64,000 nt of DNA from a phage. Under the pieces are notes generated by a model, which ran no database searches, was not told the DNA's origin, and saw only the letters and a list, made by a program, of their open reading frames with translations. The stretch's first letter is position 1, and each line of letters starts with the position of its first letter. The position numbers and the translations under genes were made by a program. The stretch is taken from the sequence record PZ402301.1; one strand, written 5' to 3'. Shown piece after piece: positions 39,527 through 62,700 of the stretch.

Positions 39527-40000
39527 TTATTTGAATGATTTGACGTACTGAATAGAACCTTTACTATTCACGAAAGCGATTTTACCATTTTTATTATACA
39601 TGGTAGCAGTACGCTGATAGCCATAAGTTTGTTTACCAGATTGATAACCAACTAATGCGAAATTATCTTCACCCATTTTATTCTGTTTAGCGCGAATACG
39701 TTCATGACCGTGTGCCATAAGAACCTTAGCATCACCAGTTGAAATTGATCTACGAGTTTTTTCATCTTCAACTGTATTAACAAAGTCGTCAAATGAATCA
39801 AATTTAGCATGGGATTTATTATACAGTTTTCCATCTACTGCATAATTATATCCCTGTACATCCATCTCAACTTCTGTACCATCATCCAATACAGCAGTGA
39901 TTTTTTGACCTTTTTTAAATTTCAAAAGATCAGTAAAAGATTCAGCAATAATTTGAGAATTAATAGCTGCTTCAGTGATAAATTCTTGATATGTTTTCAT
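39527..40000 (-). CDS. Internal (capsid-packaged) protein, IPII/IPIII family
   Basis: 157 aa; N-terminus MKTYQEFITEA matches the T4 IP capsid-targeting sequence (MKTYQEFIAEA). Confidence 0.65.
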   Translation of the reverse strand: MKTYQEFITEAAINSQIIAESFTDLLKFKKGQKITAVLDDGTEVEMDVQGYNYAVDGKLYNKSHAKFDSFDDFVNTVEDEKTRRSISTGDAKVLMAHGHERIRAKQNKMGEDNFALVGYQSGKQTYGYQRTATMYNKNGKIAFVNSKGSIQYVKSFK

Positions 40001-44545: not shown

Positions 44546-44809
44546 TTATTTCATATTATTGAAATATTCTTCTGCAATTTCATCATTATCATGGTAAACT
44601 TTAGAAGACAGTTTAACATAACCTTCTGCTGTGAACATGTTAATCACAACTTTTACAGTATACCACTGACCGTCTTCATTACCCATTACTGCGTAAGTTT
44701 CAAACATCGGATGATCAGGACCGATAACTTTAATATCATTCACTGTACGACCGAAATCTTCTGAAACGCATTTCATAAAGAAGTTGAACAGTTCGCCGTA
44801 ATTATCCAT
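44546..44809 (-). CDS. Hypothetical protein
   Basis: Track ORF 44546..44863; start taken at MDNYGELF. Confidence 0.4.
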   Translation of the reverse strand: MDNYGELFNFFMKCVSEDFGRTVNDIKVIGPDHPMFETYAVMGNEDGQWYTVKVVINMFTAEGYVKLSSKVYHDNDEIAEEYFNNMK

Positions 44810-44837: not shown

Positions 44838-44910
44838 AGTAGTTGATAGTTGTATAGTACCACAGTCCTTGTGGTATGTAAACTGTTTTGTGAAAAAATT
44901 TTTAAAAAGT
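44838..44910 (-). promoter_or_regulatory. T4-type early promoter
   Basis: cagtagttgatagttgtatagtaccacagtccttgtggtatgtaaactgttttgtgaaaaaattttt. Confidence 0.55.
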
Positions 44911-45016: not shown

Positions 45017-45046
45017 AAAAAGCCCCAACCTTTCGGTCGGGGCTAA
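45017..45046. repeat. 30-bp direct repeat copy A (hairpin-forming) downstream of the IP-like gene
   Basis: aaaaagccccaacctttcggtcggggctaa, identical to 45571-45600. Confidence 0.9.
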
Positions 45047-45050
45047 AATG

Positions 45051-45524
45051 TTATTTGATTTGTTTAGCAGACCAAATGCGGTCTTTAATAATTTTTTGGA
45101 TGTCTTCAACATACTCAAGAGAGTGAGCATGTGGATTATCTTTGAAACTATAAGCACGAGCTAGTTTTTGGCCTTCAGTTTTGATTACTAAAAGCTCTTT
45201 AAGGATAGCTTCATATTTAGCGATAATTCCTTTAACAATATTTTTTTCTTGTGCAGCTTTAGGATCTGCTTTAGGAGCAGGTTTACCCGAAGCCTTTGCA
45301 AAAGCAGCACCAGTAGCAACTAAACTTTTCCAGGCCATACTAACCGCATTTCCTGTAAATCCTTCTGCTTTCATGTCGCGAGCAAACTGGAATCGTGATT
45401 CGTCAGAAGCATCTTTATAGGAATATTTACCCGCTGCAATGGCTGCTTTTGCGACAGCTTGAATTTCGGTGCTAGATGCTTCATTTAACACCGCTTCATT
45501 TAAAAATTGAGCATATGATTTCAT
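45051..45524 (-). CDS. Internal-protein-like protein (N-terminal capsid-targeting-like sequence MKSYAQFLNEA)
   Basis: 157 aa, Ala/Lys-rich; late promoter TATAAATA 37 nt upstream; flanked by 30-bp direct repeats. Confidence 0.55.
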   Translation of the reverse strand: MKSYAQFLNEAVLNEASSTEIQAVAKAAIAAGKYSYKDASDESRFQFARDMKAEGFTGNAVSMAWKSLVATGAAFAKASGKPAPKADPKAAQEKNIVKGIIAKYEAILKELLVIKTEGQKLARAYSFKDNPHAHSLEYVEDIQKIIKDRIWSAKQIK

Positions 45525-45560
45525 CTTATTTCCTGTTTTAATTCGTGATTTATACTACTA

Positions 45561-45568
45561 TATTTATA
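45561..45568 (-). promoter_or_regulatory. Late promoter core TATAAATA for the IP-like gene 45051..45524
   Basis: tatttata on plus strand, about 37 nt upstream of the ATG. Confidence 0.55.
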
Positions 45569-45570
45569 CT

Positions 45571-45600
45571 AAAAAGCCCCAACCTTTCGGTCGGGGCTAA
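45571..45600. repeat. 30-bp direct repeat copy B (hairpin-forming) upstream of the IP-like gene
   Basis: aaaaagccccaacctttcggtcggggctaa, identical to 45017-45046. Confidence 0.9.
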
Positions 45601-45604
45601 GCCT

Positions 45605-45905
45605 TGCGGCAACCTTGTCGGGGTTCCACCTGCTAAGGCAAGTGTTTGTACGAAACGCCGGGATTCGAACCCGGTTATTAAGCAGTTGACGCTACTCAAT
45701 ATTTTTTAAAAGGCCATATCTCGACCATATCCGAACGTTCCGTCAAAAACGCTACTCGGCTTACGGCAAAGATATTTCCTCGAATCGATAATTCTGTGCG
45801 CCGTTTCTGCTGTGATGTAAGGGGATATTAACAAATCGTAAAGATTTATTAAGACCAGTCCTTACGCAGGGAACATCAGTCCGACGACTTACCGGTAGCG
45901 ACCCG
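45605..45905 (-). ncRNA. Structured non-coding region, possibly small stable RNAs (T4 rnaC/rnaD equivalents)
   Basis: No convincing ORF; contains a tRNA-like T-arm (ccgggattcgaacccgg at 45658-45674) and several hairpins; position matches T4 species 1/2 RNA genes near tRNA-Arg. Confidence 0.3.
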
Positions 45906-45910
45906 GTTTC

Positions 45911-46261
45911 TTAGTATTCTTTTAAAGCATCAACCTGTTCACGACGTTTACGCCATAAATCAATTACTTCATGCACAGATTCAGCATTTCGAATTGGACG
46001 GCATTTATATAAAGACTTATGATTTTGATATTGTGTAGATAACGGAATTTTATCTAAAAGGTCTTTACGTTCAAAATATTCGTAACCATCTAAACCAAAT
46101 GAACGATTTTTGAGAAATTGCCAATGACCATATTCGTTTTCGACATAAACATAATCTGCATGCTGATAAAGTAAATTAATTACACGTTCAGAAATAACAG
46201 TGTCATTATGATTAAAATAGAATGTTAAATCATGAACTACTAAATAAACATTACCTTTCAT
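45911..46261 (-). CDS. Hypothetical protein
   Basis: 116 aa; ATG with strong SD GTGAGGAAAAT. Confidence 0.45.
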   Translation of the reverse strand: MKGNVYLVVHDLTFYFNHNDTVISERVINLLYQHADYVYVENEYGHWQFLKNRSFGLDGYEYFERKDLLDKIPLSTQYQNHKSLYKCRPIRNAESVHEVIDLWRKRREQVDALKEY

Positions 46262-46621: not shown

Positions 46622-47104
46622 TTATTTTATGTAATATTTATTTAAAAACTTTCTAGCTTGAGTATGGCTAACATTTATAGCGTTTGCATAATTTTTAATA
46701 AAACCTCGTTCATCCATATTAAAATTTTCTAATATTTTTAATCGTCTAGTTATCTCATCTTGACTTAAGGTACTTGCATTATTTTTAGAAATTTTTTCTA
46801 AGGACTGCGCCGAGTGTTTTCGACCATTAAAATTAAAATTTTTAGATTTTGGAGGAAATCTAGCATTTAGTCTCGCATCTTTTGTATTTTGATTATTAGT
46901 TGCGCAATATATGTTATTTAATGAATATGGTCCTTTATCGCCGAAACGGCACATGCAATATTCATGACCCTTTCTTCCACGCTTATCATAATTTCCCGTT
47001 GATTTCCACCAATGCAGCCATTCATCAAAAGTTAAATTCCATTCAATGTTTCTACGTATAGCAGAATTCCGCTGAGAAATATATTTTGCATAATCTTCTT
47101 TCAT
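46622..47104 (-). CDS. Homing-endonuclease-like protein (NUMOD3-type motif, C-terminal HTH-like tail)
   Basis: About 160 aa; NGRKHSAQSLEKISK resembles NUMOD3; C-terminus NVSHTQARKFLNKY parallels the segB-like ORF; catalytic domain type unclear. Confidence 0.5.
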   Translation of the reverse strand: MKEDYAKYISQRNSAIRRNIEWNLTFDEWLHWWKSTGNYDKRGRKGHEYCMCRFGDKGPYSLNNIYCATNNQNTKDARLNARFPPKSKNFNFNGRKHSAQSLEKISKNNASTLSQDEITRRLKILENFNMDERGFIKNYANAINVSHTQARKFLNKYYIK

Positions 47105-47151
47105 CACAAATTTCTCTACTTATTCAATACACTGAGCTAAATCAGCAAAAC

Positions 47152-47247: not shown

Positions 47248-47856
47248 TTATATACTGTTAATTTGATTTAGAATTCTTTTTGCTTGAGTATGACTTACTC
47301 CAATATGCTTAGCATATTTATATAATTCACCACGCTTAGAAAAATCATATAATTTAGAAATTTCTATTCTTCTTTTTCTTTCATCCGCAGAAACTTTTGC
47401 TTCGTTTGCTTTTGCTATTTTACGTTTAGCTTCTTGAGAATGAGTTTTACCAGCAAAGCCATTCTTCATTAATCCATTTGAAGACCATCCTTTTAATTTT
47501 CCATTAGAATGAGCCTTTTTAACACCCAATGAAATTAATTCGCGTTGCTGATCTGTCATAGGATAATTATTTATATGGTCCCATCCACCTTCACCGCCAA
47601 GTTTTAAATTATACACATCTGGTCTATTTAAAAACTCTTCTGTGACAATATTTTTCTCGGCTTCAAGCATAGATTCTTTATCATCAAAATACTCTAATAT
47701 TTCTTTAGAGAAATTTTCTATACCATACTTGTCTTGGGCTCTTTTTAATAATTTACCAGAACCCATATATCCATCATCTAAATTTTCGGTAGAATGCACA
47801 CCAATATAAATTTTATTATTAATTTTATTTGTTATTTTATAAAGATAAAAATGCAT
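47248..47856 (-). mobile_element. segB: GIY-YIG homing endonuclease gene (SegB-like) inside the tRNA cluster
   Basis: Start taken at MHFYLYKITNKINNKIYIGVHST (GIY-YIG core); NUMOD3-like GKTHSQEAKRKIAKA; C-terminal HTH-like tail; T4 segB also sits in the tRNA cluster. Confidence 0.7.
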
Positions 47857-47902
47857 ATCAGTCCCTAATAAAGAACTGAGCGTCTCACGACGAGTCATAA
47901 AT

Positions 47903-62672: not shown

Positions 62673-62677
62673 ATTAA

Positions 62678-62700
62678 GGGAGCCCATGGGCTCCCTTTTT
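62678..62700 (+). terminator. Rho-independent terminator after gene 8
   Basis: gggagccc-atg-ggctccc followed by TTTTT. Confidence 0.7.

Follow-up and report, generated by a model that had tools for sequence, protein, structure and literature searches.

A gene that stands between two identical copies of a hairpin raises the question of whether these copies delimit an exchangeable cassette and, if so, what kind of gene is being exchanged. Such a gene is found in the phage sequence PZ402301.1, a stretch of 64,000 nucleotides (the window) belonging to a Tequatrovirus of the RB32/RB51/HY01 type. At the 3' end of its tRNA/stable-RNA unit, between the homologs of rnaC and e.8, two copies of one hairpin (T1#1 and T1#2, numbered in the direction of the minus strand) bracket a gene for a 157-residue protein, here called gene A. 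A reading made earlier from the sequence alone (the original prediction) had described this gene as internal-protein-like and its flanking repeats as a means of cassette exchange or deletion. At the level at which sequence comparison can test it, this interpretation proves essentially right: gene A is a candidate internal-protein (IP) cassette at a site outside the two described IP loci, apparently deletable by way of a duplicated terminator, and no new principle is involved. We put the probability of the reading as a whole, namely that the 3' end of the T-even tRNA cluster holds an accessory-gene cassette bound to this locus, at roughly 70%.

The duplicated hairpin

As had been predicted, the window contains two copies of the 30-mer AAAAAGCCCCAACCTTTCGGTCGGGGCTAA on its plus strand; their period is 554 bp. 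There are exactly two, a search allowing up to 3 mismatches having found no third site. The repeat measures exactly 30 bp, the bases bordering the two copies differing on both sides, and 100 dinucleotide-preserving shuffles gave a chance expectation of 0 matches. Read on the minus strand, each copy (TTAGCCCCGACCGAAAGGTTGGGGCTTTTT) folds into a 10-bp stem (7 G-C pairs) with a GAAA loop and a U-run (UUUUU); the folding energy in 46-nt contexts is about -20.7 to -20.9 kcal/mol (z = -4.8 and -3.5), and a terminator scan picks up both copies. The original prediction, which wrote the repeats as they appear on the plus strand, had called each of them a terminator-like hairpin. This holds for the minus strand only, since on the plus strand the stem has an A-run in front of it and no T-run behind it. 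With a GC-rich stem, a short loop, a U-run and a position at the end of a unit, both copies have the sequence features of intrinsic terminators, and from these features each is judged to be a strong one for minus-strand transcription.

The late-promoter core and the 157-codon gene that had been placed between the copies are both present (Table 1). T1#2 has no promoter adjacent to it; the early promoter of e.8 lies ~140 nt beyond. Going by these motifs, T1#1 would stop the transcripts of the tRNA/rnaD/rnaC unit, the late promoter directly after its U-run would start a monocistronic late gene A mRNA, and T1#2 would end that mRNA ahead of the e.8 early promoter.

Intrinsic terminators share a general form, and the two hairpins could be thought of as independent terminators that are alike by chance or convergence. 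This is vanishingly improbable: the 30/30 identity, for which 0 matches are expected, includes the loop and unpaired flanking bases, and none of the 16 other terminator-like hairpins in the window resembles T1. Moreover, the hairpin copies co-vary within genomes, as is seen from the matching arms in Mosigvirus p000y, where both copies carry the arm CCCCTTCC, unlike the Tequatrovirus arm, and in Dhakavirus AnYang, where both carry GCCCTTCCGAAAGGT-GGGC. A dispersed repeat family was also considered and rejected. The window holds no more copies, and the perfect 30-mer was found at 516 places in 420 records, which corresponds to roughly 96 genomes with two perfect copies; among the matches listed (60 rows of the 420 records) there is no record with more than two places. 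Rfam has no family covering the rnaC/rnaD region or the hairpins. The sole other hairpin in the window with TATAAATA at most 20 nt behind it, at 62676-62697 (+), is bidirectional and unrelated in sequence to T1.

The flanking repeat has already been noticed in the annotation of phage RB51, whose GenBank record (FJ839693) describes RB32ORF132c (157 aa), the same gene, as 'flanked by 34 bp imperfect direct repeat'. In RB51 the sequence common to both copies extends into GGTAT, which is the source of the 34 bp. The annotation records the repeat without the terminator, the capsid-targeting sequence (CTS) of the protein, the empty site in T4 or the four-state interpretation described below.

Four states of one site

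In phage T4 a single T1, identical at 30/30 positions, is situated shortly downstream of rnaC and is followed by GGTATCTAAGCCTTTCC, the sequence found after T1#2 in the window. Exactly one identical copy, and no gene A, is likewise present in T2, T6 and PST. Between the end of rnaC and the ATG of e.8, T4, T2 and T6 have 259 nt and PST has 248 nt. The window has 814 nt there and, compared with T4, holds exactly one added unit of late promoter, gene A and terminator (554 bp more). A base-by-base comparison of 22 related loci revealed four states of the site: empty, with one T1 (T4, T2, T6, PST, FriedrichZschokke and pSe_SNUABM_01); A only, in the order T1-A-T1 (the window, RB51, R5505, PP01, teqskov, SP21535 and one IMG/VR contig); A+B, in the order T1-A-T1-B-T2 (VIPECOOM01, pSs-1, HP3, Pu-Krd-SF3 and others); and B only, in the order T1-B-T2 (HY03, RB14 and Shfl2). 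Gene B encodes a 187-aa protein starting with MKTYAEFLTE↓A (the arrow marks the protease-type site), and terminator T2, not to be confused with the phage of that name, is the hairpin CCCTATCTAAATGATAGGGCTTTTT, which is unrelated to T1. The repeat is thus found well beyond the window and the gene content between its copies varies. Alternative genes sought at the locus across relatives were found in the form of gene B and, in AnYang, of an unrelated gene behind a hairpin-plus-promoter unit.

The breakpoints between the states lie at the repeat. T1-like hairpins stand on both sides of gene A in every gene-A locus among the 22, and the four bases after the U-run predict the module that comes next: AGTA or GGTA with TAAATA leads into A, AGTT into B, and GGTA or GATA with TCTAGG into e.8. 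In B-only loci T1 is followed by AGTT, which is exactly the A+B arrangement minus gene A and one T1. The e.8 flank adjoins terminator T2 in A+B loci and T1 in A-only loci, and that junction shares only GGGCTTTTT (~9 nt). Two of the four breakpoints are at the hairpin; the other two share only GGGCTTTTT at the hairpin 3' end.

An IMG/VR scan with an rnaC-end anchor yielded 6 loci only, and the GenBank phage collection was used for counting; the record counts are approximate and include some duplicate database entries. The 1.8-kb neighbourhood matches 771 phage records (best 96%). The rnaC/D region was found in 760 records, gene A in 512 (391 of them at an identity of at least 80%), gene B in 165, and the full A+B locus, covered to at least 80%, in 128. 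In an evenly spaced 60-row sample of the 771 records, classed by coverage, the classes agreed with those predicted: 100% for A+B, 75% for B-only, 64-69% for A-only and 40% for empty sites. We estimate ~128 A+B, ~37 B-only and ~260 A-only records, while the figure of ~77 empty ones is an extrapolation from 6/60 sampled rows. Gene A is single-copy in all 512 records, and every locus inspected has it behind rnaC or tRNA genes. Mobility to other genomic sites was accordingly rejected: gene A is a locus-bound presence/absence cassette, not a mobile element.

In mechanistic terms, recombination of the T4 type or replication slippage between the 30-35 bp repeats would remove exactly the promoter, the gene and one terminator, and would leave the one-copy state of T4, T2, T6 and PST. 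A+B loci would lose A likewise, the same joint separating A from B, and occupied and empty alleles could be swapped between co-infecting phages via the conserved rnaC/D and e.8 flanks. Variants of the hairpin bear on this proposal. A two-base change in the 5' arm, GACC>AGCC (giving CCAGCC), is found in copy 2 in PP01, teqskov and SP21535 and in copy 1 in an IMG/VR contig (L011), and its occurrence in either copy suggests conversion or crossover between the two. In VIPECOOM01 (positions 2715-2738 of locus L001) the middle hairpin is a loop-inverted perfect palindrome, with GACC-TTTC-GGTC instead of GACC-GAAA-GGTT, the pattern expected of template switching within a quasi-palindrome. Neighbour-joining trees were constructed for the left flank (rnaC/D) and the right flank (spacer and e.8) from 22 short sequences, without bootstrap. 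Empty sites fall into at least three or four flank lineages beside occupied ones: phage T2 neighbours HY03 and HP3; T4, PST and T6 neighbour Pu-Krd-SF3; FriedrichZschokke neighbours RB14 and pSs-1; and pSe_SNUABM_01 neighbours PP01. The left- and right-flank trees disagree, and together with the scattered states this incongruence indicates repeated loss, gain or exchange.

The incongruent trees and scattered states would also suit an account in which the repeat is incidental, a relic of a tandem duplication of gene plus terminator, with presence and absence arising from homologous exchange through the long conserved flanks. Gene A, gene B and two proteins from other genera, AnYang ORF077 and KP1_122, all belong to the family phrog_2280, and their partial similarities fit old tandem paralogs. 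However, alleles can be spread by flank exchange but cannot arise from it, there is exactly one hairpin in the empty allele, B-only loci equal A+B minus one repeat unit, and the same arm variant occupies copy 1 or copy 2 depending on the genome. We consider this account somewhat unlikely as a replacement for deletion between the repeats, to which it is complementary rather than exclusive. Very unlikely, in our view, is a spread of the cassette by co-conversion with the homing endonuclease genes of the tRNA cluster, in the manner of SegB-type preferential inheritance. A GIY-YIG/SegE-like gene (47248-47898) is indeed situated ~1.7 kb away, segB-like genes adjoin the locus in T4, T6, PST, PP01 and others, and SegB-driven inheritance of the T4 tRNA region has been published (Brok-Volchanskaya 2008, as listed in PMC4122927); yet T4, T6 and PST have segB and an empty site, and homing leaves the hairpin junctions unexplained.

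For a cassette lost by deletion between the repeats, other genera provide an indication of the ancestral state, as gene A homologs occur downstream of tRNA genes or rnaC in three of them. The Mosigvirus homolog (74% identity) stands between two matching hairpins and has a degenerate late-promoter variant, ATAATAAATA. The homolog in Jiaodavirus KP1 (KP1_122, 42% identity) has GCCCCGTCTTCGGACGGGGCTTTTTAGTATAAATA in front, in a hairpin-then-TATAAATA arrangement. In Dhakavirus AnYang (positions 987-2260 of locus L017) the unit of T1-like hairpin and TATAAATA occurs twice, the first leading into ORF078, a DUF7338 membrane-like gene that is unrelated and lacks a CTS, and the second into ORF077, a 202-aa CTS gene of phrog_2280 with a long Pro/Lys/Ala-rich linker. 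An unrelated gene such as ORF078 can fill the same kind of slot. With homologs behind a similar hairpin and late promoter in other genera, the occupied state is probably ancestral, the arrangement of hairpin, late promoter and CTS gene is probably older than the genus Tequatrovirus, and the empty state of T4, T2 and T6 would most simply be a derived deletion.

The gene A protein

The N-terminus of gene A had been likened to the CTS of T4 internal proteins, and the comparison bears this out: MKSYAQFLNE↓A matches MKTYQEFIAE↓A of T4 IPII and IPIII at 5/10 identical and 2 conservative positions and ends in the L/I-x-E motif of the prohead protease gp21. In the alignment with T4 IPI-III the leader of gene B is closer still to IPII/IPIII. 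At the motif level gene A has LNE↓A twice, at residues 8-11 and 13-16, the motif being doubled in Tequatrovirus (FLNEA-VLNEA), where NEAVL is a five-residue insertion when compared with the homologs from Mosigvirus and Klebsiella phages. In 10/10 aligned homologs, across genera, a Glu stands at the position of E15, with A/Q-S after it. The mature gene A protein is predicted to have 15.4-16.0 kDa and a pI of 9.5, compared with 9.0-9.65 for IPI*-IPIII* (9.56 for IPII*, 9.65 for IPIII*). In being small, basic, dispensable and variably present among close relatives, gene A displays these traits of T-even IPs. Only two open reading frames (ORFs) in the 64-kb window start with such a leader, gene A and a homolog of IpIV, and a leader-pattern search of the window found no homolog of IPII or IPIII. 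The IpIV homolog (39527-40000, minus strand; 157 aa, starting MKTYQEFITEA) is near-identical to the IpIV of Yersinia phage PST; its family matches are phrog_3155 ('internal virion protein') and Pfam DUF7412.

A profile search, to which the original prediction had looked for a function, did not supply one. The gene A protein matches phrog_2280 over its full length (E = 4e-60, residues 1-157); this is its only match in PHROGs, and the family has no assigned function. A Pfam search returned only sub-threshold noise. Among 5.8 billion proteins 14 matches were found, all 'hypothetical' and all from T-even-type phages, and an exhaustive profile search of 1.8 billion representatives gave 14 matches with no annotated relative among them. 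The AlphaFold model (pLDDT 75) is all-helical with two domains, and a fold search with it found no significant match in the PDB and only the protein's own family in BFVD. Gene B, AnYang ORF077 and KP1_122 also match phrog_2280. Direct homology between A and B was rejected, as BLASTP and hhalign align the leader only. ORF077 can be aligned with gene B from end to end (E = 5e-5, 26% identity); it also aligns with the C-terminal domain of KP1_122 (E = 2e-5), the N-terminal domain of which is that of A. Joined only indirectly through ORF077 and KP1_122, A and B point to phrog_2280 as a loosely connected, domain-shuffled family.

Given a T4-type leader ending in L-x-E↓A, the gene A protein would most likely be loaded into the scaffolding core of the prohead, cleaved there by gp21 behind E10 or E15, and then packaged and injected, like T4 IPI-III. 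After injection the three T4 internal proteins inhibit different GmrSD-type restriction enzymes (PMC12373910), which makes CTS-bearing proteins direct candidates for anti-defence functions and for host-range determinants. By analogy, the likeliest role of gene A would be the neutralisation of a first-line host defence.

The gene A product could instead be an ordinary late protein that is not packaged, with the leader coding sequence and the ribosome-binding region kept as a shared module. A late promoter, unlike the early-type promoters of the T4 and PST ip genes, a position outside both published IP loci, and the lack of detectable likeness between A and B beyond the leader would all be in keeping with such a protein. 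On the other side, the leader and the L-x-E site are kept from Tequatrovirus to Klebsiella- and Dhaka-type phages and the rest diverges or is swapped, no ORF of the 64-kb window but the IpIV homolog has this leader too, the protein is like IPII* and IPIII* in size and basic pI, and a 10-residue CTS reportedly suffices for packaging (Mullaney and Black 1996, cited in PMC9391042). We therefore regard a non-packaged protein as unlikely; if it were correct, an ordinary variable accessory gene would remain.

Several points weigh against a packaged IP cassette that comes and goes through its repeats. Gene A lies outside both described IP loci, some 4-5 kb away from either; the IP-like leader and the variability stand, and the location does not. 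Early-type promoters with AT-rich palindromes are found at T4 ipI, ipII and ipIII as well as at PST ipV and ipVI, and TATAAATA is absent from the 130 nt next to these genes, which means that gene A is regulated differently. An internal L-K-E at residue 108 also fits the protease motif, and the databases name every member of the gene A family 'hypothetical protein'. Our literature search gave no virion proteome or processing report covering the family, and searching by ORF names gave no paper. With regard to the history of the site, a junction between A-only and A+B loci that shares only ~9 nt implies that not every change of state is explained by the 30-bp repeat; the flank trees, with their 22 short sequences, have no resampling support; and the direction of change, loss or gain, is read from the distribution across genera only.

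Surroundings of the locus and relation to known systems

The neighbouring genes and tRNAs are all encoded on the minus strand. In the direction of this strand, the tRNA cluster, which includes the GIY-YIG endonuclease gene, is followed by tRNA-Arg, a 116-aa ORF, rnaD/rnaC, T1#1, the late promoter, gene A and T1#2, and then by a spacer of ~140 nt, the early promoter and e.8 (Table 1).

Table 1. Features of the gene A locus, with positions in the window
Feature	Positions	Strand	Description
rnaC/rnaD homolog (species 1 + 2 stable RNAs)	45601-45905	-	left boundary of the variable site
T1#1, terminator copy 1	45571-45600	-	at the end of the tRNA/rnaD/rnaC unit; 30/30 identical to the single T4 copy
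Late promoter core TATAAATA	45561-45568	-	2 nt past the T-run of T1#1
Second late-core copy TATAAATC	45547-45554	-	7/8 match, 6 nt after the first core; Shine-Dalgarno sequence and ATG next
Gene A, 157 aa	45051-45524	-	internal-protein-like, phrog_2280; only long ORF between the copies
Gene A leader, codons 1-15 MKSYAQFLNEAVLNE	45480-45524	-	CTS-like; two L-N-E↓A protease-type sites (after E10 and E15)
T1#2, terminator copy 2	45017-45046	-	behind gene A; downstream flank is the sequence after the single T4 copy
T4 early-type promoter (TTTACA, 17 nt, TACTAT)	44854-44882	-	precedes e.8
e.8 homolog	44546-44809	-	right boundary of the variable site

The surroundings show further differences between related phages. 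The 116-aa ORF (45911-46261, minus strand; phrog_3355, no Pfam match), between tRNA-Arg and rnaD, is present in T2, RB51, Shfl2 and HP3 and absent from T4, T6 and PST, an adjoining presence/absence difference. In HY03 (positions 94-738 of locus L012) a gene for a 'putative adenosylribosyl-transferase packaged protein' on the opposite strand adjoins the homolog of this ORF and stands where other phages have tRNA-Arg, which means that the local order in HY03 is rearranged. Two ORFs break up the tRNA cluster of the window, both on the minus strand: one at 47248-47898 (216 aa) encodes the GIY-YIG/SegE-like homing endonuclease, with a NUMOD3 motif, and the other at 46622-47107 (161 aa) has no Pfam match and a C-terminus like that of the first. 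T4 carries a tRNA set different from the one seen here (Gln, Leu, Gly, Ser, Met/Ile, Tyr, Asn, Arg). Within the homolog of the tRNA-like T4 rnaC (species 1 RNA), ARAGORN reports a 'tRNA-???' with a two-base anticodon at 45648-45743 (-).

The closest functional comparison is with the T-even internal proteins, that is, IPI-III of T4 and the variants Ip4-Ip10 from other T-even phages (Repoila et al. 1994; Mullaney and Black 1996; PMC12373910). Gene A shares with them the 10-residue leader of the MKTYQEFIAE type with its L/I-x-E↓A end; they are likewise small, basic, non-essential and variably present, with family members alike in the leader only. It differs in locus, lying between rnaC and e.8 rather than at ipI (57B to tRNA.4) or ipII/ipIII (denV to e), which on the T4 map are ~3 kb upstream and ~4.5 kb downstream, respectively. 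It also differs in having a late promoter where theirs are early-type, and GC-rich terminator repeats where theirs are AT-rich promoter stem-loops. From Ip4-Ip10 gene A is set apart by its locus only, and its family may be among the '>30 IP variants' of the earlier IP literature (Repoila 1994, Comeau 2007). Silas et al. 2025 refer to 'the two Ip loci' (PMC12373910). The gene A family is present in most sequenced Tequatrovirus genomes and absent from T4, T2 and T6, and this absence would explain its omission from the literature describing two loci. A bolder proposal, which we hold to be doubtful though worth stating, is that the rnaC-e.8 junction is a third, unrecognised T-even IP locus with 0-2 CTS genes of the domain-shuffled phrog_2280. 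Their products would be late-expressed, packaged, injected and directed against defences that T4, T2 and T6, having lost the locus, cannot counter, and the units of terminator and late promoter would form a 'late' counterpart of the PeSL (promoter-early stem-loop) cassettes, which are mobile regulatory elements of T4-type phages, and act as recombination joints.

In its architecture the locus resembles these PeSL cassettes (Arbiol et al. 2010, PMC2839356; Comeau et al. 2014, PMC4122927), in which a GC-rich stem-loop of the GGGG...CCCC type is likewise combined with a promoter, small accessory ORFs lie between repeated copies, the gene moves together with its promoter and terminator, and indels between close relatives end at the elements. 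This last property is found here. The early sigma-70-like promoter of PeSL is replaced by the late core TATAAATA, and instead of a dispersed family there are two copies at one locus, with no sign of circular intermediates or of movement elsewhere.

With regard to the deletion step, T4 deletes segments of 0.7-6 kb between microhomologies of 6-10 bp and keeps one copy (Srikant et al. 2022, PMC9391042), just as the direct repeats here flank the segment and the deleted allele keeps exactly one. GGGC/GCCC inverted repeats are described at T4 deletion endpoints (Mosig et al. 1998, as cited in PMC2839356), and to the extent of that citation the GCCC...GGGC motif of the hairpin is a further likeness. 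T4 recombination needs <50 bp of homology (PMC2839356). The T4 deletions are laboratory events at 6-10 bp, whereas the present case is a natural polymorphism at a regulatory repeat of 30-35 bp. The locus is an unusually clean natural case in which the duplication of a regulatory signal, a terminator, allows an accessory gene to be deleted precisely, and it offers a simple system on the scale of the polymerase chain reaction for measuring repeat-bounded gene loss. Taken together, it works like the IP and the PeSL systems and is a textbook member of neither.

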